From: a virus
Lineage: Duplodnaviria > Heunggongvirae > Uroviricota > Caudoviricetes
DNA: 19,645 bases
Reading direction: 5' to 3' (one strand)
Virus record (IMG/VR): IMGVR_UViG_2579778660_000002
The notes beneath the pieces were generated by a model that was not told where the DNA came from, did no database searches, and saw nothing but the letters and a program-made list of their open reading frames with translations. The position numbers were made by a program, and so were the translations under genes. Within the stretch, counting starts at the first letter, position 1. The number at the start of each line of letters is the position of its first letter. Positions 1,441-19,645 of this stretch are shown here, piece by piece.

Positions 1441-2489
1441 CACTCCCTGCCTCTGTCATCACGATACTGTGATGCCATGGTGTCCGACTTATGCCCGAGA
1501 AGATGTTGAGCAAACTTATCGCTTATCTGCTTCTCATAGAGTCTTGCAGACAAACTGCGCAACTCGTGAAAGGTAGGCGGATCCCCTTCGAAGGAAAGAC
1601 CTGATGCTTTTCGTGCGCGCATAAAATACCTTGATACTGTGCCGGATGAAAGCGGTTCGCGACGAGTAGATGCAATTATGGTTTCTCCGCCAAGAATCTC
1701 TTTGCATTTATCAAGTGTTTCCTTCATTGATATTCCGAGAGCATCAACATGCAATGCTGTTGGGATGGCAATTTTTACGCCTGTTTTGCTTTGCTCGACA
1801 TAAAGATATCCATCTACGATATCAGACCACTTCATTTCGCATAAATCACCAACTCGCTGCCCGGTAACAACAGCCAGTTCCATTGCAAGTCTAAGCCAAC
1901 ATGGTGATGATTCTGCTGCTTGATAAATTTTCAGGTATTCGTCAGCCGTAAGTCTTGATCTCCTTACCTCTGATTTTGCAGCGCGAGTGGCTGCGACCGG
2001 GTTTGTTGTTATATGGCCTTCAGCTATAGCCTCTCGGAATGCATCGCTCAGTGTTGATCTGATTAACTTGGCTGATGCCGCCTTGCCCTCGTCTATGTAT
2101 CCATTGAGCATTGCCGCAATTTCTTTTGTGGTGATGTCTTCAAGTGGAGCATCAGGCAGACCCCTCCTTATTGCTTTAATTTTGCTCATGTAATTTATGA
2201 GTGTCTTCTGCTTGATTCCTCTGCTGGCCAGGATTTTTTCGTAGCGATCAAGCCATGAATGTAACGTAACGGAATTATCACTGTTGATTCTCGCTGTCAG
2301 AGGCTTGTGTTTGTGTCCTGAAAATAACTCAATGTTGGCCTGTATAGCTTCAGTGATTGCGATTCGCCTGTCTCGGCCTAATCCAAACTCTTTACCCGTC
2401 CTTGGGTCCCTGTAGCAGTAATATCCATTGTTTCTTATATAAAGGTTAGGGGGTAAATCCCGGCGCTCATGACTTCGCCTTCTTCCCAT
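1419..2489 (-). CDS. int: Lambda integrase (tyrosine recombinase)
   Basis: 356-aa translation (MGRRRSHERRDLPPNLYIRNNGYYCYRDPRTGKEF...HLLGHKSDTMASQYRDDRGREWDKIEIK) matches recalled lambda Int almost residue for residue; ATG at 2487-2489; 3' end overlaps P' arm as in lambda. Confidence 0.95.
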   Translation of the reverse strand: MGRRRSHERRDLPPNLYIRNNGYYCYRDPRTGKEFGLGRDRRIAITEAIQANIELFSGHKHKPLTARINSDNSVTLHSWLDRYEKILASRGIKQKTLINYMSKIKAIRRGLPDAPLEDITTKEIAAMLNGYIDEGKAASAKLIRSTLSDAFREAIAEGHITTNPVAATRAAKSEVRRSRLTADEYLKIYQAAESSPCWLRLAMELAVVTGQRVGDLCEMKWSDIVDGYLYVEQSKTGVKIAIPTALHVDALGISMKETLDKCKEILGGETIIASTRREPLSSGTVSRYFMRARKASGLSFEGDPPTFHELRSLSARLYEKQISDKFAQHLLGHKSDTMASQYRDDRGREWDKIEIK

Positions 2490-2685
2490 TTCTGATCCTC
2501 TTCAAAAGGCTACCTGTTACTGGTCGATTTAAGTCAACCTTTACCGCTGATTCGTGGAACAGATACTCTCTTCCATCCTTAACCGGAGGAGGGAATATCC
2601 TGCACTCGCGTACCCATCGACGAACTGTTTCAAGGCTTCTTGGGCGTCGCTGGCGTGCGTTCCACTCCTGAAGTGTCAAGTACAT
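2467..2685 (-). CDS. xis: Lambda excisionase
   Basis: 72-aa translation MYLTLQEWNARQRRPRSLETVRRWVRECRIFPPPVKDGREYLFHESAVKVDLNRP... matches recalled lambda Xis; overlaps int start by 23 nt as in lambda; ATG at 2683-2685. Confidence 0.93.
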   Translation of the reverse strand: MYLTLQEWNARQRRPRSLETVRRWVRECRIFPPPVKDGREYLFHESAVKVDLNRPVTGSLLKRIRNGKKAKS

Positions 2686-2710
2686 CGCAAAGTCTCCGCA
2701 ATTACACGCA

Positions 2711-2733
2711 AGAAAAAACCGCCATCAGGCGGC
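2711..2733 (-). terminator. Intrinsic-terminator-like hairpin with U-tract on the minus strand, upstream of xis (tL3-like position)
   Basis: CCGCC/GGCGG stem with 4-nt loop (2719-2732); read on minus strand it is followed by TTTTTT (plus-strand A6 at 2712-2717). Confidence 0.4.
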
Positions 2734-2892
2734 TTGGTGTTCTTTCAGTTCTTCAATTCGAATATTGGTTACGTCTGCATGTGCTATCTGCGCCCACAGC
2801 ATCCAGTGGTCATAGCAGTCGCTGATGTTCTCGGCTTCGATAACTCTGTTGAATGGTTCTCCATTCCATTCACCTGTAACTCGGAAGTGCAT
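2725..2892 (-). CDS. Possible small ORF (55 aa) between ea8.5-like gene and xis
   Basis: ATG at 2890-2892, open to TGA at 2725-2727 (MHFRVTGEWNGEPFNRVIEAENISDCYDHWMLWAQ...); no convincing Shine-Dalgarno; below ORF-track size cut-off. Confidence 0.25.
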   Translation of the reverse strand: MHFRVTGEWNGEPFNRVIEAENISDCYDHWMLWAQIAHADVTNIRIEELKEHQAA

Positions 2893-2980
2893 TTATCATC
2901 GCCATAAAACAAAACTCGCCGTAGCGAGTTCAGATAAAAGAAATCCCCGCGAGTGCGAGGATAGTTACTTGTTCATATTA

Positions 2981-3262
2981 TTAATCGTCAATGTATTTTG
3001 AGCATTGTGGGCAATCATCGATCCCACAATACGATTCATATGCATCCTTTATTGCGTCGCGGGCTTCAGTAAGAGTATTGAATAAGTTGCAGCTATTATC
3101 TTTTTGATATAGGTAAGTTCCTAATTTATAAGCAGAAGAAGCATCATTTCCGCTGTCTAAAATTACATCGTTATGGATTCTGCACCTTGCAAGAACTCCT
3201 GATCCCATAAGGGTCTGCATAGCCCATTGCTCTTGATCTTCACACAAATCATGAATGCTCAT
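2981..3262 (-). CDS. Ea8.5-like small Cys-rich (zinc-finger-like) phage protein, 93 aa from ATG
   Basis: ORF-track frame starts at a GTG (3280), but an ATG at 3260-3262 preceded by AGAGAGG gives a 93-aa product, the length of lambda Ea8.5; position immediately after xis; Cys pattern including CPQC near the C-terminus. Homology not verified by search. Confidence 0.55.
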   Translation of the reverse strand: MSIHDLCEDQEQWAMQTLMGSGVLARCRIHNDVILDSGNDASSAYKLGTYLYQKDNSCNLFNTLTEARDAIKDAYESYCGIDDCPQCSKYIDD

Positions 3263-3376
3263 TTCAACACCTCTCTTCACGTTTCACACACGTTAAGATT
3301 AACAGTGTTTTTACATGCTTTGGGAGATTTATTTTATAAAAACTCTTTTAATACAAATAGATATAATAGTTCACTA

Positions 3377-4174
3377 TTATAGCTCCTTTAATCGAGGCGG
3401 TTCTGGTAGAGGCATCCAGTGGGTTACACCGCCAATTGGCTCATCGTCGTCGTACTCCAATGCGGCTATATAGAACCCGTCACGACGAGAATAAGAAATC
3501 CCGGACATTACAATGCCATCCGAAACAACAATAATGTCACCCGTTTCTTTCGGCATTCGCTCACTACAGCTTATCCAACCATCCGGAGTCACCGGAAGCG
3601 AGAACGGCAGCACATCTCTGTGAACAAGTTTTTGCTGTGACAGGTTATCCAGAACTTTCTGTACTGCTGCATCACCGAATACACCAAGCGCATCTGCCAT
3701 AACTCCTACAACCTGATAAGCCTCAGCGCATACCGTGGATAAACCATCCGGAATTACCGGAGAGTTGCCGGGTTCTTTAATGTGCAAGCGAGGCTCACCA
3801 TCTTTTGGTTCAGGCCACTGGCGCTCCATGTTGATCTTCAATTTATCTTCCATAGCAGCGGTAATTTCAGCATCGCTGATGCCAGCACGGCGCTGTGCAT
3901 CCCACAACAGGAAATGCATATCAGCCCACTCGCTGAGATCGTCTGGTTCGGCTGCGGCTTCCAGAGCCTCTTTTGAGAGGTGTTTCAGTGGACCAATGGG
4001 GCCAACGCAGCCAAATGTGGAGTCAGACCATTTGGCATGCTCGTGGCGAATCAGTTCGCGTTCCAGTGATGCCAGTGCAATTCGTGCCAGTTCCATTTGT
4101 TCGCCACGAGTAAGCCCGTTTTCAAGCGGATTTTTAATGAACAATTCAATACGTTCTTTGGTAATAGTGGTCAT
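3377..4174 (-). CDS. Phage protein with N-terminal MazG-like (DUF550-type) nucleotide pyrophosphohydrolase domain and C-terminal DUF551-type domain
   Basis: 265-aa ORF, ATG at 4172-4174 with AAGGA upstream; N-terminal all-alpha region with acidic cluster EALEAAAEPDDLSEWAD typical of MazG-like NTP-PPases; C-terminal ...GGVTHWMPLPEPP typical of DUF551 as recalled. Family assignment from memory. Confidence 0.6.
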   Translation of the reverse strand: MTTITKERIELFIKNPLENGLTRGEQMELARIALASLERELIRHEHAKWSDSTFGCVGPIGPLKHLSKEALEAAAEPDDLSEWADMHFLLWDAQRRAGISDAEITAAMEDKLKINMERQWPEPKDGEPRLHIKEPGNSPVIPDGLSTVCAEAYQVVGVMADALGVFGDAAVQKVLDNLSQQKLVHRDVLPFSLPVTPDGWISCSERMPKETGDIIVVSDGIVMSGISYSRRDGFYIAALEYDDDEPIGGVTHWMPLPEPPRLKEL

Positions 4175-4184
4175 TTGTTAGTCC

Positions 4185-4940
4185 TTAAACTGCTAGTTGC
4201 AATTGCATTTCAAAGCGGTCGCGTTGTTCACAATACGCAAGAGAACCAGGGCTATTGTGTGCCTCAATCCGTTCTACCATTAATGCTGCGCGTGTCTCTT
4301 TACTTGCAGGTGCATAAGCCCCAGACCAGGCTTTATCAATACCGATGTTTCGAGCGACGTTCGTACTATCTGCGCTGGCTAAGGGTAATTTTGTGAATAT
4401 CAGCGGATTTAACATGCGCAATCCATGTAGTTTCGTAACCGGCTGACCATGCCCATCAACAATGTGACGAATCAGGTCTTTCATTCTGGCTACCGCAAGA
4501 GTTGGGCGCTTTACGTCATAGTCGCCACAACTACCGATAGCCACTCGCGGAAACTCATTGCACAAATGAATAAATCGCGCGTCACTTTCATTCATGTGCC
4601 ACACTGGAACGCCAGCTAGTTTTCCGTGAGGCCACTCATTCAGAAGCGCATCATTTTCCTCCTCTCCGCCATCAATAATATCCGGGATAATGGCAAAATC
4701 GAATCCTGGGTGATTCTTCCAGCGAGCAACAAACTCGTAGTAATCGCTCCAGTCGATTTTGTTTTTGCCAGCTGCTTTCCAGGCGGTGAATGCACCGTTG
4801 TCCAGCGCGAACGACTGACAGTATTCAGCCGCGAGATTGATCTGGCCTGAATGCGCAAAACTGATAAACGCATGTCGCCCTTTCCATGCTCTCATTGCGC
4901 ACGTATCAGGAGTAATAGGCCCACCGTGGTAGTGAATCAT
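4185..4940 (-). CDS. Hypothetical protein with tRNA-guanine-transglycosylase-like (DpdA-like) motifs, 251 aa from the internal ATG
   Basis: ORF-track start at 4982 overlaps upstream gene by 41 nt; ATG at 4938-4940 is preceded by AAGGAGAG and sits 1 nt after the upstream stop. Ordered motifs LDNGAF, AIGSCGD, LHGLRMLNP, TNVARNIG resemble TGT motifs DSGGF, AVGG, LMGVGKP, PTRNARNG; no C-terminal zinc motif. Confidence 0.55.
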   Translation of the reverse strand: MIHYHGGPITPDTCAMRAWKGRHAFISFAHSGQINLAAEYCQSFALDNGAFTAWKAAGKNKIDWSDYYEFVARWKNHPGFDFAIIPDIIDGGEEENDALLNEWPHGKLAGVPVWHMNESDARFIHLCNEFPRVAIGSCGDYDVKRPTLAVARMKDLIRHIVDGHGQPVTKLHGLRMLNPLIFTKLPLASADSTNVARNIGIDKAWSGAYAPASKETRAALMVERIEAHNSPGSLAYCEQRDRFEMQLQLAV

Positions 4941-4941
4941 C

Positions 4942-5349
4942 TCACTCTCCTTTGATGCGAATGCCAGTAGCGCGGATTGCATCGATGACTTCAGAAACTT
5001 TGTATGCCATTACCGTTTGGTAATCATCGTGAAAATCTGTTCGATGAAGCATGCTGCTACGTTCCGGGAGCAGTATTTCCCGCGCTTCCAGTTCTGCAAT
5101 GCGCTTTTTTGCTGCTTCCAGTTCATCCAGTAATTCCAGCACGGTAGCCGGATTAGCCTTGGCAACAAAATCCCGGACTGGCTTACAATCAATCTCCGCA
5201 ATGGGTTGATTCGATGTGTAGCCATGCTGTCTTGTATAACTACCGTGACGAATAACGAAAAAATCACCATTTATTTTTTTAGCCTGCCACTTATCTTCAC
5301 CGGCTTTCTCTGCCGCTTCACGCAGTGCCTGAGAGTTAATTTCGCTCAC
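4942..5349 (-). CDS. Ead/Ea22-like phage protein (GTG start, coupled to upstream stop)
   Basis: 135-aa ORF; start GTG at 5347-5349 overlapping the TGA of the upstream gene (GTGA), GAGAGG 8 nt upstream; coiled-coil segment NPATVLELLDELEAAKKRIAELEAR as in Ea22-like proteins. Confidence 0.6.
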   Translation of the reverse strand: MSEINSQALREAAEKAGEDKWQAKKINGDFFVIRHGSYTRQHGYTSNQPIAEIDCKPVRDFVAKANPATVLELLDELEAAKKRIAELEAREILLPERSSMLHRTDFHDDYQTVMAYKVSEVIDAIRATGIRIKGE

Positions 5350-5567
5350 TTCGAACCTCTCTGTTTACTGATAAGCTCCAGATCCTCCTGGCAACTTGCA
5401 CAAGTCCGACAACCCTGAACGACCAGGCGTCTTCGTTCATCTATCGGATCGCCACACTCACAACAATGAGTGGCAGATACAGTCTGGTAGTTCAGACGAC
5501 GCATTTTTATTGCTGTGTTGCGCTGTAATTCTTCAATTTCTGATGCTGAATCAATGATGTCTGCCAT
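5346..5567 (-). CDS. TraR/DksA-family C4 zinc-finger protein (lambda Orf73-like)
   Basis: 73-aa ORF with CxxC...CxxC (CCECGDPIDERRRLVVQGCRTCASCQ), the size and motif of TraR-like phage proteins; ATG at 5565-5567. Confidence 0.7.
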   Translation of the reverse strand: MADIIDSASEIEELQRNTAIKMRRLNYQTVSATHCCECGDPIDERRRLVVQGCRTCASCQEDLELISKQRGSK

Positions 5568-5665
5568 CTTCCATTAATCCCTGAATTGTTGGTTAATACG
5601 CTTGAGGGTGAATGCGAATAATAAAAAAGGAGCCTGTAGCTCCCTGATGATTTTGCTTTTCATGT

Positions 5666-5947
5666 TCATCGTTCCTTAAAGACGCCGTTTAACATGCCGA
5701 TTGCCAGGCTTAAATGAGTCGGTGTGAATCCCATCAGCGTTACCGTTTCGCGGTGCTTCTTCAGTACGCTACGGCAAATGTCATCGACGTTTTTATCCGG
5801 AAACTGCTGTCTGGCTTTTTTGATTTCAGAATTAGCCTGACGGGCAATGCTGCGAAGGGCGTTTTCCTGCTGAGGTGTCATTGAACAAGTCCCATGTCGG
5901 CAAGCATAAGCACACAGAATATGAAGCCCGCTGCCAGAAAAATGCAT
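5666..5947 (-). CDS. Hypothetical small protein (93 aa from ATG 5947, or 71 aa from ATG 5881)
   Basis: Open frame with two candidate ATG starts, neither with a strong Shine-Dalgarno; occupies the position of lambda orf60a but no recognisable similarity. Confidence 0.4.
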   Translation of the reverse strand: MHFSGSGLHILCAYACRHGTCSMTPQQENALRSIARQANSEIKKARQQFPDKNVDDICRSVLKKHRETVTLMGFTPTHLSLAIGMLNGVFKER

Positions 5948-5957
5948 TCAGTGGTTG

Positions 5958-6149
5958 TCATACCTGGTCTCTCTCATCTGCTTCTGCTTTCGCCACCATC
6001 ATTTCCAGCTTTTGTGAAAGGGATGCGGCTAACGTGTGAAATTCTTCGTCTGTTTCTACTGGTATTGGCACAAACCTGACTCCAATTTGAGCGAGGCTAT
6101 GTGCCATCTCGATACTCGTTCTTAACTCAACGGGAGATGCTTTGTGCAT
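5958..6149 (-). CDS. Small phage protein, 63 aa (lambda orf63-like by position and length)
   Basis: ATG at 6147-6149 gives 63 aa; overlaps the upstream 63-aa ORF by 28 nt, the same overlap geometry as lambda orf61/orf63; ORF-track start at 6164 would run through the G9 tract. Confidence 0.5.
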   Translation of the reverse strand: MHKASPVELRTSIEMAHSLAQIGVRFVPIPVETDEEFHTLAASLSQKLEMMVAKAEADERDQV

Positions 6150-6313
6150 ACAGCCCCCCCCCATTTATTATTTATCTCCTCAGCCAGCCGCTGTGCTTTC
6201 AGGGGATTTCGGATTACAGAAAGGCCGGGAAATACCCAGCCTCGCTTTGTAACGGAGTAGACGAAAGTGATTGCGCCTACCCGGATATTATCGTGAGGAT
6301 GCGTCATCGCCAT
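6122..6313 (-). CDS. Small phage protein, 63 aa (lambda orf61-like by position), start overlapping exo stop
   Basis: ATG at 6311-6313; overlaps exo 3' end by 10 nt; ends just after the homopolymer tract. Confidence 0.5.
6154..6162. repeat. Homopolymer tract C9 (G9 on the coding strand) in the overlap of two small minus-strand ORFs
   Basis: Nine consecutive C at 6154-6162; lies at the frame switch between ORFs 6122..6313 and 5958..6149/6164. Confidence 0.9.
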
Positions 6314-6984
6314 TGCTCCCCAAATACAAAACCAATTTCAGCCAGTGCCTCGTCCATTTTTTCGATGAACTCCGGCACCATCTCGTCAAAACTCGCCATG
6401 TACTTTTCATTCCGCTCAATCACGACATAATGCAGGCCTTCACGCTTCATGCGCGGGTCATAGTTGGCAAAGTACCAGGCATCTTTTCGCGTCACCCACA
6501 TGCTGTACTGCACCTGGGCCATGTAAGCCGATTTTATTGCCTCGAAACCACCGAGCCGGAATTTCATGAAATCCCGGGAGGTAAACGGGCATTTCAGTTC
6601 AAGGCCGTTGCCGTCACTGCATAAACCATCGGGAGAGCAGGCGGTGCGCATATTTTCGTCGCGATAGATGATCGGGGATTCAGTAATATTCACGCCGGAA
6701 GTGAATTCAAACAGGGTTCTGGCGTCGTTCTCGTACTGTTTTCCCCAGGCCAGCGCCTTAGCATTAACTTCCGGAGCCACACCGGTGCAAACCTCAGCCA
6801 GCAGGGTGTGGAAGTAGGACATTTTCATGTCAGGCCACTTCTTTCCTGAGCGGGGCTTTGCTATCACGTTGTGAACTTCTGAAGCGGTGATGACGCCGAG
6901 CCGTAATTTGTGCCATGCATCATCCCCCTGTTCGACAGCTCTCACGTCGATCCCGGTACGCTGCAGGATAATGTCCGGTGTCAT
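6304..6984 (-). CDS. exo: Lambda exonuclease (Red-alpha)
   Basis: 226-aa translation [65 protein letters not shown]... matches recalled lambda Exo with a few substitutions; ATGA overlap with bet stop. Confidence 0.95.
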
Positions 6985-7184
6985 GCTGCCACCTTCTGCT
7001 CAGTGGCTTTCTGTTTAAGGAATCCAAGAGCTTTCACTGCTTCGGCCTGTGTCAGTTCTGACGATGCGCGAATGTCGCGGCGAAATATCTGGGAACAGAG
7101 CGGCAATAAGTCGTCATCCCATGTTTTATCCAGGGCGATCAGCAGAGTGTTAATCTCCTGCATGGTTTCATCGTTAAGGGGGGT
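6981..7184 (-). pseudogene. bet: bet (Red-beta) 3' fragment: only the C-terminal ~60-68 codons remain
   Basis: Translation [67 protein letters not shown] matches the lambda Bet C-terminus; in-frame stop immediately upstream of the homology; no gam between bet and kil. Confidence 0.85.
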
Positions 7185-7326
7185 AGTGAATGCTTTTGCT
7201 TGATCTCAGTTTCAGTATTAATATCCATTTTTTATAAGCGTCGACGGCCTCACGAAACATCTTTTCATCGCCAATAAAAGTGGCGATAGTGAATTTAGTC
7301 TGGATAGCCATAAGTGTTTGATCCAT
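7174..7326 (-). CDS. kil: Kil (host division inhibitor) homologue, 50 aa; C-terminus probably altered by the bet-gam deletion
   Basis: ATG at 7324-7326 lies inside the 3' end of cIII in the lambda kil/cIII overlap arrangement; MDQTLMAIQTKFTIATFIGDEKMFREAVDAYKKWILILK...; ORF-track frame 7174..7452 is the same frame with a spurious N-terminal extension. Confidence 0.7.
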   Translation of the reverse strand: MDQTLMAIQTKFTIATFIGDEKMFREAVDAYKKWILILKLRSSKSIHYPP

Positions 7327-7459
7327 TTTTTGGGACTCCTGGCTGATTAAGTATGTCGATAAGGCGTTTCCATCCGTCACGTAATTTACGGGTGATTCGT
7401 TCAAGTAAAGATTCGGAAGGGCAGCCAGCAACAGGCCACCCTGCAATGGCATATTGCAT
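7295..7459 (-). CDS. cIII: CIII (FtsH/HflB inhibitor), 54 aa
   Basis: Hand translation of minus strand from ATG 7457-7459: MQYAIAGWPVAGCPSESLLERITRKLRDGWKRLIDILNQPGVPKNGSNTYGYPD*, matching recalled lambda CIII; absent from ORF track because under 60 aa. Confidence 0.85.
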   Translation of the reverse strand: MQYAIAGWPVAGCPSESLLERITRKLRDGWKRLIDILNQPGVPKNGSNTYGYPD

Positions 7460-7531
7460 GGTGTGCTCCTTATTTATACATAACGAAAAACGCCTCGAGT
7501 GAAGCGTTATTGGTATGCGGTAACGCCGCGC

Positions 7532-7900
7532 TCAGGCGGCTTTGATAGTCATATCATCTGGATCAAATATTCCTGATGTATCGATATCGGTAATTCTTAT
7601 TCCTTCGCTACCATCCATTGGAGGCCATCCTTCCTGACCATTTCCATCATTCCAGTCGAACTCACACACAACACCATATGCATTTAAGTCGCTTGAAATT
7701 GCTATAAGCAGAGCATGTTGCGCCAGCATGATTAATACAGCATTTAATACAGAGCCGTGTTTATTGAGTCGGTATTCAGAGTCTGACCAGAAATTATTAA
7801 TCTGGTGAAGTTTTTCCTCTGTCATTACGTCATGATCGATTTCAATTTCTATTGATGCTTTCCAGTCGTAATCAATGATGTATTTTTTGATGTTTGACAT
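7532..7900 (-). CDS. Ea10-like protein, 122 aa (lambda position between cIII and ral)
   Basis: ATG at 7898-7900 with GAGGA 10 nt upstream; gene order cIII-ea10-ral as in lambda; identity inferred from position and length only. Confidence 0.55.
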   Translation of the reverse strand: MSNIKKYIIDYDWKASIEIEIDHDVMTEEKLHQINNFWSDSEYRLNKHGSVLNAVLIMLAQHALLIAISSDLNAYGVVCEFDWNDGNGQEGWPPMDGSEGIRITDIDTSGIFDPDDMTIKAA

Positions 7901-16740: not shown

Positions 16741-17482
16741 GTACATAAACGTACAAAATGTGATGAAAGTAGAGTGGCGTAAGCCACTATATTAAGATAT
16801 GACAATAGCGAAGAAAAGTAAATAACATTTTATGGACGTTTAATTGTTAATTATAAAAACTAGAGTGCCCGATATTGTTTATCTTGCTTTAAAATAATGT
16901 ACTCAAACCAAATTTTTGAGCTAAAAGCTCAAATAATATAAATGCAATGATAATGTTTAATAAGACAATTAGCTTGCTTTGTATTTTCATTTCGGAATAC
17001 TGTTAAGTAACTTTGATGACCCTAACAATAGATCGGAATTTTCTTAGAGTCAATGGTCAATGTTTTTGCTTGCAAAGCAAATGTTTTGGTGGTTATAAGT
17101 TGTCTTAATATAGTCACGCATGCAACTTGTTCCATGCGGAGATTAAAGATTGGAATATAACGCGAAGATGGAATTAAATTACATTTGCAATAACCAATTT
17201 ATTATTACTCAATAATTACCGATATTATTATTGTAAATTAATCATTAGAGTGCAAAAAGAAATGTAACGGCAAAATAAGAGGACGATAGCTGAGAAAAAA
17301 GCGTGCTTTCCCAATCTGGGGCAAATCACGTCTGAATGACACCTGAAAACAGGTGGTAGCCTCAAGAAGGCTTGGAATATTCTTCTTTAATGTTATGTAA
17401 TTCATTGATTTTTCGTGTACGATTTTAAGACATTTATTCCAAGAAAAATTTTTAACTCTTTGATTTTTCGACTCTGTATCAT

Positions 17483-17544
17483 CGGTCTCGAAAACCGGAG
17501 TAGGGGCAACTCTACCGGGGGTTCAAACCCCCCTCTCTCCGCCA
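17483..17544 (+). tRNA. 3' partial tRNA-Ser (serU-like): anticodon arm, long variable arm, T-arm, acceptor 3' strand and CCA; no 5' half
   Basis: CGGTCTCGAAAACCGGAGTAGGGGCAACTCTACCGGGGGTTCAAACCCCCCTCTCTCCGCCA matches the recalled 3' portion of E. coli tRNA-Ser(CGA); upstream sequence does not match the D-arm/acceptor 5' strand. Confidence 0.6.
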
Positions 17545-18128
17545 CTTTATCAATGACTTATCTCCCGACTTCCCGCCTTGCTTTTCCTAAACAGAACAAT
17601 CGTAGAATATTCTTGAAGGGTTAGATCGTCACTGTTTTCTGTTCGATACTGTGACATTCAGCACTTGATTCGCTATGGATCTGACAGGAAGGTTTTGAGC
17701 GAAAATTTGCAGTTATTCAGTTGTTTTCTTATCGGTCACCATTATTCTTTTAGACATTGATCCTACAAAGCTGCCGCAAAGTTGGTGGTGGGAACTGAAG
17801 TTGCGTAGAGAAGGGGTCAATACCCGGAGGCAAACATGGGCTGGCAAAAGTGTAGCGGTATTAGGCGCAGCTATTTAGCCTAGTTATGTTTTATGAAAAC
17901 TTGATATCATATAAGTGTCTTACTTATTGGCTGTAAATAAGTTTTTCCTAAGGAATTGTTTCTTGAGTATCATTTGTAACTGTAACGGAATTTATAATCC
18001 TTTGCTTTATTGTTACGGTATTTTTTATCACACCCTATTTTTTATGTGGTTTTTTATACTGAAGTTTGGCAAAGTGAACTTTATATGCATATACTTCATC
18101 CTGGTTTCAGTTAAGTTGGGTGGATGAT

Positions 18129-18872
18129 ATGGCAACTACATGTTCAGTTATATTGATTTTGGAGTCCTTTGATGTTTATTTCGGAAAAGAGAGTGTGTTT
18201 CTGGAGAGAGGTTCATCTGTACTTGTCGACTCTAGCTCTAGAGATTTTTTCCTGACATATCCTGAAAGAGTGATAGTGGCGGATTTTGGCGCTGAGTTTA
18301 TTAGTCGCTATTTGAAAGCTAATAACTTAAGGGATATTTCTGATTGTAGGGAATATCCATCTTATTTAAAAATAAACTTTGCTGACTTCAGTTTAATTAA
18401 AGGATTAATTAGTTGGGCTAATCACTGTGCTGAATACATAGAAATTTTTGATGAGTCTATTGCTTTTACATGTCTCTCTGCATTTTCTTCTGAAAAACAA
18501 TTTGGAGTATTTCTGTTTGAATGTTTGAAAAGCACAGGGGCTAAAGTTAAAACGATTATTCATACGGATTTATCTGCACCATGGCGTCTTAAGGATATAT
18601 CATCAAGATTATATCTCAGCGAAAGTTTACTAAAGAGGAAATTGAAAGAAGAGGGGGTATCATTCAGTAAGATCATACTTGATGAGAGGATGCAAATGGC
18701 TGAATATTTACTCAGCACTCGTTGTTATCCTATTAGTAAAGTAGCTAAGGTCTGTGGTTATGCCAGTGTTTCATACTTTACTTATGTATTTAGACGTTAT
18801 TTTGGTGTTTCTCCAAGTCAATACTCTCAGAGCAGTTCAGAAAGTAAAATTCTTACTCACCAGGGAATCTGA
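18129..18872 (+). CDS. AraC/XylS-family transcriptional regulator (Rns/AggR/AppY-like)
   Basis: ATG at 18129 with GGGTGGA upstream (ORF-track start 18120 is GTG); C-terminal double HTH ...LYLSESLLKRKLKEEGVSFSKIILDERMQMAEYLLSTRCYPISKVAKVCGYASVSYFTYVFRRYFGVSPSQY; long AT-rich upstream region. Confidence 0.85.
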   Translation: MATTCSVILILESFDVYFGKESVFLERGSSVLVDSSSRDFFLTYPERVIVADFGAEFISRYLKANNLRDISDCREYPSYLKINFADFSLIKGLISWANHCAEYIEIFDESIAFTCLSAFSSEKQFGVFLFECLKSTGAKVKTIIHTDLSAPWRLKDISSRLYLSESLLKRKLKEEGVSFSKIILDERMQMAEYLLSTRCYPISKVAKVCGYASVSYFTYVFRRYFGVSPSQYSQSSSESKILTHQGI

Positions 18873-18888
18873 TCATTGTTCTTGCCCC

Positions 18889-19384
18889 CTTATTTCCAGA
18901 CAGGGGGTGTATCTTAAGTTAACGTTACCCGCTGACGTCGATATTCTCGCGGAGAGCGATAACCCAACGCACTGTGCGGATGGTTTTCATTGTAATGTTC
19001 GATCGCCACTGCAAGATTATGCAATGCCGTTCTTACATTCGGTTTCGGCATGAACGCGATGTAGTCTTCCTTCATCGTTTTCACGAACCTTTCTGCCATT
19101 CCATTACTCTGAGGACTGCTGATTGCCGTTGTGCAGGGCTCCAGATTCAACTCTCTGGCGAACTGCCATGTTTCATGCGCTCTATACGCTGAACCGTTAT
19201 CTGTCAGCCACTGGATGGACTGTTCCGGTACTTTATCGCCAAAGCGTTTTTCTATCGCTCCTAACATGACATCCTGCACTGTCGCTTTATCGTAACCTCC
19301 CGTGCTTGCGGCCCAGTCTATGGCTTCACGATCGCAACAGTCCAGGGCGAACGTAACACGCAGTTTTGAATCGCCACGGGTTTA
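18889..19384 (-). mobile_element. IS3-family (IS2-like) fragment: terminal inverted repeat plus 3' ~155 codons of orfB (DDE transposase), 5' part missing
   Basis: Minus-strand translation ...[42 protein letters not shown]...[19 protein letters not shown] resembles recalled IS2 InsD C-terminal half; 18891-18913 TTGCCCCCTTATTTCCAGACAGG resembles the IS2 terminal repeat; homology stops near 19384. Confidence 0.7.
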
Positions 19385-19429
19385 ACAGACACCTCAGAGT
19401 CATTTAAGATGGCTTAAAGAGAGGTGCCC

Positions 19430-19645
19430 ATGAGCGGTAAGCGTTATCCCGAAGAGTTTAAAACTGAAGCAGTCAAACAGGTTGTTGATCGCGGTTATTC
19501 TGTTGCCAGCGTTGCAACACGTCTCGATATCACCACCCACAGCCTTTATGCCTGGATAAAGAAGTACGGTCCGGATTACTCCACTTTTTCATCAAGCCAA
19601 TCCGCCCACCACTGCATCATTTCTCTGCGCTTATCGAAATACTGA
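19430..19645 (+). CDS. IS3-family transposase OrfA (HTH), apparently truncated or disrupted after about 48 codons
   Basis: ATG at 19430 preceded by AAAGAGAGG; MSGKRYPEEFKTEAVKQVVDRGYSVASVATRLDITTHSLYAWIKKYGPD is a typical IS3-family OrfA N-terminus; the tail DYSTFSSSQSAHHCIISLRLSKY is atypical; opposite orientation to the orfB fragment. Confidence 0.65.
   Translation: MSGKRYPEEFKTEAVKQVVDRGYSVASVATRLDITTHSLYAWIKKYGPDYSTFSSSQSAHHCIISLRLSKY

Follow-up and report, generated by a model that had tools for sequence, protein, structure and literature searches.

The protein family PF04447, formerly DUF550, now bears the name dATP/dGTP pyrophosphohydrolase after an enzyme of Acinetobacter phage SH-Ab 15497, which, according to passages of PMC12884076 and PMC8342488 that cite Zhou et al. 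2021, converts dGTP and dATP to their monophosphates in the 2-aminoadenine (Z-genome) pathway. MazG and MazZ enzymes are dimers or tetramers (PMC8342488), and the structure of S-2L MazZ (7ODY) contains bound dGDP and three Mn2+ ions. DUF551 has been described as a portable domain of mosaic proteins of the exo-xis region, Ea22 variant V2 and YfdS, with no biochemistry assigned; the phenotypes of these proteins, a pro-lysogenic effect and H2O2 sensitivity, belong to the whole proteins (PMC10834534, PMC4776307). Phage DpdA alone inserts dPreQ0/preQ0 post-replicatively by base exchange (PMC6884629, PMC10516641), and the list of "DpdA only" phages, which obtain preQ0 from the host, includes BTP1, SPN3UB, SfI, and HK106 (Hutinet et al. 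2019, PMC6884629, Supplementary Data 1). Here we describe a gene that joins DUF550 to DUF551 directly next to a DpdA-type gene. It occupies positions 3377-4174, on the minus strand, of IMG/VR record IMGVR_UViG_2579778660_000002, a stretch of 19,645 nucleotides (nt) that we refer to as the window. We conclude, with a probability of roughly 0.7, that it is an EaA-family accessory gene of lambda-like prophages and that its adjacency to DpdA reflects a shared, shuffled region and not a conserved pair.

The gene encodes a DUF550 domain with a MazZ-like active site

The gene, its modules, and its immediate neighbor were delineated as follows.

3377..4174, minus strand: EaA-type gene (leader, DUF550, linker, DUF551), 265 amino acids (open reading frame [ORF] list, Pfam)
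4061..4174, minus strand: N-terminal leader module, residues 1-38 (MTTITKER...ELARIALASLE; AlphaFold2, recurrence before other cassettes)
3764..4051, minus strand: DUF550 (PF04447) MazG-like pyrophosphohydrolase domain, residues 42-137 (Pfam, Foldseek, hhalign)
3581..3763, minus strand: linker module, residues 138-198 (low-confidence helices; optional among variants)
3395..3580, minus strand: DUF551 (PF04448), small beta-barrel, residues 199-260 (Pfam)
4182..4186, minus strand: Shine-Dalgarno-like AAGGA of the EaA-type gene, 8 nt 5' of the ATG (sequence reading)
4185..4940, minus strand: DpdA-type guanine transglycosylase (TGT-like) gene, probably 251 amino acids (phrog_887, BTP1 homology)

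By sequence reading, the EaA-type gene starts with the ATG at 4172-4174 and stops at 3377-3379, and its AAGGA overlaps the TAA (4185-4187) that ends the DpdA-like gene. Both genes are on the same strand, and 10 nt separate the stop of the first from the start of the second.

Pfam searches at an E value of 0.01 or below returned only two families, PF04447 over residues 42-137 (E = 1.1e-41; 141.4 bits against a cutoff of 23; model positions 1-96 of 97) and PF04448 over residues 199-260 (E = 7.3e-14; 52.8 bits against a cutoff of 22), and the canonical MazG model PF03819 was not matched. Pairwise BLASTP between the DUF550 domain and MazZ was insensitive, so that profile comparison and a fold search were needed; single-sequence phmmer searches of the EaA-type and DpdA-like proteins against the PDB yielded nothing useful. 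An AlphaFold2 model of the 265-residue protein, built on 72 sequences, predicted core helices at residues 23-54, 60-75, 80-96, and 101-117, with block-mean predicted local distance difference test (pLDDT) scores of 84 to 94 over residues 31-120. This prediction, which is a model and not a solved structure, has the four-helix core of the all-alpha MazG/HisE fold. Its best Foldseek match in the PDB was S-2L MazZ (7ODY), with a probability of 1.00, a template modeling score of 0.71 normalized to the target, and 29% identity. Profile alignment to S-2L MazZ with hhalign (probability of 92.4%, E = 5e-7, 92 columns) placed the residues of the MazZ active site, whose roles we took from PMC8342488, at the following positions of the window protein.

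Metal ligands: MazZ E35, E38, E50, and D53; here E69, E72, E82, and D85 (hhalign)
Transition-state arginine: MazZ R83; here R118 (hhalign)
Second-chain pocket: MazZ K76, N80, and W85; here K111, N115, and W120 (hhalign)
Guanine N2 contact: MazZ D60; here D92 (hhalign)

The mapped active-site and pocket residues were 99 to 100% conserved in 133 cluster representatives, and E69, E72, E82, D85, and R118 were each conserved in 100% of them. Since the predicted fold and the active site agree with this superfamily and PF03819 does not match, we classify the protein as MazG-like at the level of superfamily, fold, and active site, and as a member of PF04447 and not of MazG proper. One position sets the window allele apart: codon 87 (3914-3916) encodes histidine, whereas glutamine is found in 98% of the DUF550 family. 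The equivalent residue of MazZ, L55, is not among the listed ligand contacts (PMC8342488).

The 5' neighbor matched phrog_887, "queuine tRNA-ribosyltransferase" (E = 6e-102), and shared 92% identity with its counterparts in Salmonella phages BTP1 (over residues 15-265) and SPN3UB. Its sequence had no match in Pfam or the PDB, and a profile of DpdA orthologues compared with the PDB matched no TGT or DpdA structure. The PHROG match and the list of Hutinet et al. assign the predicted protein to the DpdA family. The ORF as listed mechanically spans 4185-4982, and a start at 4982 overlaps the upstream Ea22-like gene. The true start is probably the ATG at 4938-4940 (M15), giving a protein of 251 amino acids, because homologues align from M15 and because this ATG comes after both a GGAG and the TGA (4942-4944) closing the Ea22-like gene.

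The original prediction, made from the letters of the window, had read an all-alpha MazG-like (DUF550) pyrophosphatase on the N-terminal side, a C-terminal DUF551, and an adjoining TGT-like gene. All three readings hold, both profiles being matched above their gathering cutoffs. Many E. coli RefSeq genomes, APEC O78 (NC_020163.1) among them, match the two-gene stretch at 100% identity and name the protein "dATP/dGTP pyrophosphohydrolase domain-containing protein" or "DUF550 domain-containing protein." The domain names of the gene were therefore already present in RefSeq, and nothing here is new in kind. Searches of NCBIfam and PADLOC with the EaA-type and DpdA-like proteins returned no matches, and we found nothing functional in the literature on EaA, DUF550, or DUF551 in lambdoid phages.

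The protein is a mosaic of exchangeable modules

To describe the position downstream of DpdA, we extracted the next gene from 80 IMG/VR loci and 28 loci of species-representative genomes encoding DpdA-like relatives. These DpdA-anchored loci contained 84 distinct forms of the downstream gene. When the products were scanned singly with Pfam, PF04447 was present in 19/84 and PF04448 in 30/84; a few had unrelated domains (RusA, NinB, MT-A70, GPA), and most had no domain at all. In E. coli-type loci, taken as those with a DpdA identity of 97% or more, nearly all downstream genes opened with the same leader or a variant sharing 55% identity with it. After the motif LARIALASLE the sequence varied, and DUF550 followed in 21 of these 51 loci.

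The leader thus ends at a recombination junction marked by the conserved LARIALASLE. Its DNA (window 4052-4184) was found at 1,610 places in 1,220 of 5,426 complete E. coli genomes, before many different cassettes. AlphaFold2 predicts two helices in it, at residues 6-14 and 23-54, the latter running on into the first helix of DUF550; given that MazG and MazZ enzymes form dimers or tetramers, this helix may extend the oligomer interface. The linker, with pLDDT scores below 50 at residues 139-153 and 180-196, matched phrog_28884 at residues 145-195. It is missing from two relatives (L025 and L039) and 98 to 100% identical in others.

In DUF551, a conserved frame, PDGWIxxSERMP ... THWMPLPxPP, encloses a hypervariable core, which differs among relatives in both sequence and length, with W200, P208, W253, and P257 invariant in 28 to 37 diverse sequences. 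DUF551 alleles are exchanged independently of the other modules. The match to the closest phage record, Stx1a_EH2115, ends at window position 3552, just past SERMP, as though the conserved motifs of DUF551 acted as recombination junctions.

Together, these results show that four exchangeable modules make up the protein, a mosaic of the P22 EaA type, and that each boundary between them is a recombination junction, as described for Ea22 (PMC10834534). The gene clearly illustrates how modules are shuffled in frame at short conserved junctions (LARIALASLE, SERMP, and THWMPLP), and it warns against inferring function from adjacency in the exo-xis region.

Two derivatives of the gene were encountered among the relatives. 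On an IMG/VR contig (L010, 6809-7054), an 81-amino-acid truncated copy precedes DUF550 coding sequence in which conservation is still 99%; the truncation probably arose by a recent frameshift or nonsense mutation. In the natural chimera P0194, residues 1-169 of Bet are fused to residues 176-265 of the EaA-type protein, that is, the end of the linker plus DUF551, a relative of window 3377-3649; it evidently arose by deletion between bet and an eaA-like gene. Because P0194 was a member of the alignment, a PDB profile match to lambda Red-beta (7UJL, E = 1.4e-8) appeared, which we discarded as an artifact.

A hypervariable core between invariant motifs is the pattern expected of a domain that tracks a diversifying partner. 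It would fit a role in phage-host or phage-phage conflict in place of general pool tuning, with the MazG-like domain destroying a nucleotide needed by a host defense or a superinfecting phage and DUF551 targeting a fast-evolving partner. The location of the gene in an early accessory region beside anti-restriction-type functions (DpdA here, ral in relatives) and the wide occurrence of DUF550 in lytic Klebsiella phages and in prophages are consistent with such a role. However, the variation of DUF551 resembles cassette exchange and would be produced equally by neutral mosaicism, no PADLOC defense model was matched, and we found no link in the literature between lambdoid DUF550/DUF551 and defense or counterdefense. 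We consider a conflict role unlikely and retain that of an EaA-family accessory gene.

DUF550 and DpdA are separable

The 5,426 complete E. coli genomes contained the DpdA allele in 201, the DNA of the DUF550 domain in 500, and the contiguous DpdA-leader-DUF550 stretch in 138. In the remaining 63 of the 201 genomes with DpdA, a different cassette lies downstream. Among loci whose DpdA is 87 to 94% identical, DUF550 was adjacent in 6/30. In approximately 20 loci of Pantoea, Erwinia, Yersinia, Proteus, Aeromonas, and others for which full flanks were available, it was adjacent to DpdA in none, two of them having a DUF550 within 6 kb. SfI likewise has a DpdA without DUF550 next to it. With 0/∼20 adjacent pairs in these genera and 19/84 downstream products, the pair is not co-conserved across divergent DpdA lineages. 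Klebsiella phage Opt-79, which we checked as a possible independent co-occurrence, has no annotated DUF550.

The converse sample was anchored on P22 EaA and comprised 79 DUF550 loci, in which about 5 kb upstream and the retrieved downstream flank were searched. DpdA was adjacent in 15/79, and 63/79 had no DpdA-like match within about 5 kb upstream or in the retrieved downstream flank. Of the 500 E. coli genomes bearing DUF550, ∼362 lacked the contiguous stretch, and phage records showed DUF550 in 443 (363 of them Klebsiella phages) compared with any DpdA-family match in 107. DUF550 genes are thus not usually accompanied by DpdA, as judged by 15/79 loci and ∼138/500 E. coli genomes.

The two genes also come apart elsewhere. 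A nearly isogenic arrangement at locus L217 (3525-5798) encodes an identical 265-amino-acid DUF550-DUF551 protein. The DksA-like and ea8.5-like genes on either side are the same as in the window, but DpdA is missing: an Ea22 variant of 229 amino acids, together with small ORFs of 62 and 69 amino acids, takes the place of the Ea22-like gene and DpdA. In P22 the gene order is eaD-eaI-eaA, with no DpdA annotated there, and in BTP1 it is an eaD-like gene, DpdA, and eaA. DpdA therefore seems to be an optional insertion at a constant position.

Several observations weigh against this reading. DUF550 follows DpdA in 138/201 (69%) of the E. coli genomes, compared with ∼399/1,409 (28%) of other leader-bearing genes, the latter figure being approximate since it mixes counts of places and of genomes from separate searches. 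In a sample of IMG/VR loci anchored on exo, DUF550 was present in 6/14 DpdA-positive and 3/∼55 DpdA-negative loci. At least five leader/DUF550 allele combinations occur directly after DpdA (L004, L025, L039, BTP1 [L002], L057, and L063/L066), and for this reason DpdA and DUF550 may have a weak selective association or a weak facultative partnership. As for the enzyme itself, the window allele departs from the family at residue 87 (Q87H), we found no enzymology of lambdoid DUF550 proteins in the literature, and this copy may be unexpressed in its decayed prophage without pL and N.

The Q87H substitution shows how the E. coli counts should be read. In the DpdA-anchored sample, this rare marker was common to 19/21 E. 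coli-type DUF550 copies adjacent to DpdA, which points to one ancestral haplotype, so the E. coli counts are not independent events. We had considered whether Q87H was exclusive to DpdA-adjacent copies and dropped this idea, as the DUF550-anchored sample contained four Q87H copies without an adjacent DpdA, L217 and three further ones. In the lineage tagged by this allele, DUF550 lies next to DpdA in most cases but not in all. Co-occurrence is enriched in raw counts that ignore kinship, and these counts are dominated by one allele lineage. Tight physical linkage plus shared descent in a small shuffled region adequately explains the raw E. coli association.

The original prediction had also raised, as speculation, a two-gene nucleotide-pool or DNA-modification module. 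In such a module, the pyrophosphatase would tune a dGTP/GTP-derived pool or hydrolyze 7-deazaguanine deoxynucleoside triphosphates (dNTPs) recycled from modified DNA and so aid modification by DpdA. The idea draws on the spacing of the two genes, with a stop codon overlapping a ribosome-binding site on the same strand, on the raw enrichment, on an adjacency that recurs with several DUF550 alleles and leaders in E. coli and Salmonella phages, and on the guanine chemistry of both proteins, the guanine N2 contact D60 of MazZ being kept as D92. Yet phage DpdA inserts dPreQ0 by itself, without need of a partner at the dNTP level (PMC6884629, PMC10516641), and the main text of PMC6884629 makes no mention of a MazG-like partner. 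The pairing is unconserved in DpdA orthologues of other genera, in SfI, and among the downstream variants, DUF550 is mostly found without DpdA, and L217 has the identical protein with no DpdA. The E. coli enrichment is real in raw numbers; once relatedness is weighed, it is largely that of one allele lineage, such as a 10-nt linkage would give anyway, and it does not support a module. We regard a cooperating pair as quite unlikely.

Neighboring genes and prophage context

The window is E. coli chromosome in which a lambdoid prophage occupies attB-lambda, the attachment site of lambda, and the features surrounding the two genes are listed below, with the strand where it was assigned.

Up to 1284: end of a pectinesterase-like host gene (ORF list)
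1419-2489: lambda-type integrase (ORF list)
2467-2685: excisionase (ORF list)
2912-2931 and 2943-2962, minus strand: terminator-like hairpins past the ea8.5-like gene (terminator scan)
2981..3280, minus strand: ea8.5-like gene, 3' of the EaA-type gene (PF20735, E = 1.1e-15)
4942..5349, minus strand: Ea22/EaD-like gene, 5' of the DpdA-like gene (PF13935, E = 2.9e-17)
5627-5645, minus strand: terminator-like hairpin on the 5' side of the DksA-like gene block (terminator scan)
8389-8610: Q-like fragment
8799-9881: porin
14233-16443: tail-fiber-like ORF with an S74 chaperone domain
18120-18872: AraC-type gene

A run of leftward "ea" genes follows the integrase and excisionase, and the Ea22/EaD-like gene sets the syntenic order eaD-[DpdA]-eaA. 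The hairpins at 5627-5645 and 2912-2962 bracket a block of DksA-like, Ea22-like, DpdA, EaA-like, and ea8.5-like genes. From the DksA-like to the ea8.5-like gene, the scan found no minus-strand terminator-like hairpin with a stem of more than 5 pairs; two weak 5-pair sites (3747-3761 and 3476-3489) lie inside the EaA-type gene. Terminator-like sites within 2400-7600 numbered 12, compared with 5.2 expected from shuffles.

The lambdoid prophage has decayed to a DLP12-like remnant (6304-19645). Its exo is intact, bet is cut to its last 60 codons (6981-7163), and gam, N, cI, cro, O, P, and pL were not found in the window. The remnant also contains holin, lysozyme, Rz, and Bor genes and a DUF1398 gene. 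All window ORFs scanned were lambdoid accessory, lysis, porin, or tail-fiber genes, and neither PurZ (adenylosuccinate synthetase) nor DatZ (HD phosphohydrolase) was found among them, so the gene does not belong to a Z-genome cluster.

With gam, most of bet, N, cI, cro, O, and P gone and Q reduced to a fragment, the gene might be a passenger with no current function in this genome, its integrity due only to the young age of the remnant. Copies in many E. coli genomes that are 99.9 to 100% identical, and hence of recent common descent, fit this explanation, as does the existence of truncated and chimeric derivatives such as the 81-amino-acid L010 copy and the Bet::DUF551 fusion P0194. Nevertheless, the ORF and all its catalytic residues are intact, the same protein is encoded on long viral contigs that are possibly complete phages, and the explanation covers this copy only and not the family. 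We find it improbable.

Proposed role of the EaA-type protein

The EaA-family gene would belong to the exo-xis region found in lambdoid and P22-like phages, the early-left region transcribed from pL. An intact phage would express it early, once infection or induction has begun, and its product would change the pool of purine dNTPs. By homology to the SH-Ab 15497 enzyme and S-2L MazZ, DUF550 is predicted to hydrolyze dGTP, and probably dATP, to the deoxynucleoside monophosphate and pyrophosphate at a three-metal site; this hydrolysis is known only from these two proteins, in MazZ for (d)GTP. The most plausible function of DUF551 is the binding or targeting of something variable, and DpdA would be an optional cassette inserted between the Ea22/EaD-like and EaA-like genes. 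A facultative partnership, in which the enzyme hydrolyzes 7-deazaguanine dNTPs or lowers dGTP so that 7-deazaguanine enters DNA only via base exchange by DpdA, with DUF551 tethering the enzyme to a variable partner, seems scarcely likely.

For this locus the significance is small, as RefSeq has the right domain names and the neighbor falls in a catalogued DpdA-only class. The family is of modest wider relevance for what a dGTP/dATP pyrophosphatase may do in temperate phages without a Z-genome pathway. This DUF550 allele is present in ∼9% of complete E. coli genomes (500/5,426) and the domain in hundreds of Klebsiella phages.

Comparison with known systems

The best structural match is S-2L MazZ, a MazG-like NTP pyrophosphohydrolase specific for (d)GTP, whose active-site residues align with those of the window protein. 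It differs in being a stand-alone protein of 105 amino acids, ∼30% identical, that is encoded beside purZ and datZ. MazZ E34 and N20 are replaced by K68 and F54 in the window protein, and the substrate range may differ accordingly.

The DUF550 protein of SH-Ab 15497 (MazZ-2 type) belongs to the same family, PF04447, and shares the conserved acidic metal ligands. It differs in lying in a purZ/datZ Z-genome cluster and in being fused to DUF5664. The partners of DUF550 in the window protein are instead the leader and DUF551, in a temperate lambdoid phage with no PurZ or DatZ among the ORFs scanned.

Ea22 variant V2 of Stx phages and YfdS of CPS-53 have the same C-terminal DUF551 in mosaic exo-xis or prophage proteins (PMC10834534, PMC4776307). 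Their N-terminal part differs, being an Ea22 coiled coil or missing.

We found no function in the literature for EaA of P22 or BTP1. P22 EaA shares the PF04447 domain with the window protein, and a tblastn match of 79% identity falls in the annotated eaA. P22 differs in having eaI, not DpdA, upstream of eaA. The EaA proteins of P22 and BTP1 are longer (317 to 321 amino acids) and have a different leader, and the DUF551 match is absent in BTP1-type loci. Their genes nonetheless occupy the same position as the EaA-type gene of the window, after an Ea22/EaD-like gene and before xis/int, and their products start with the same kind of leader (MTTITKE...).

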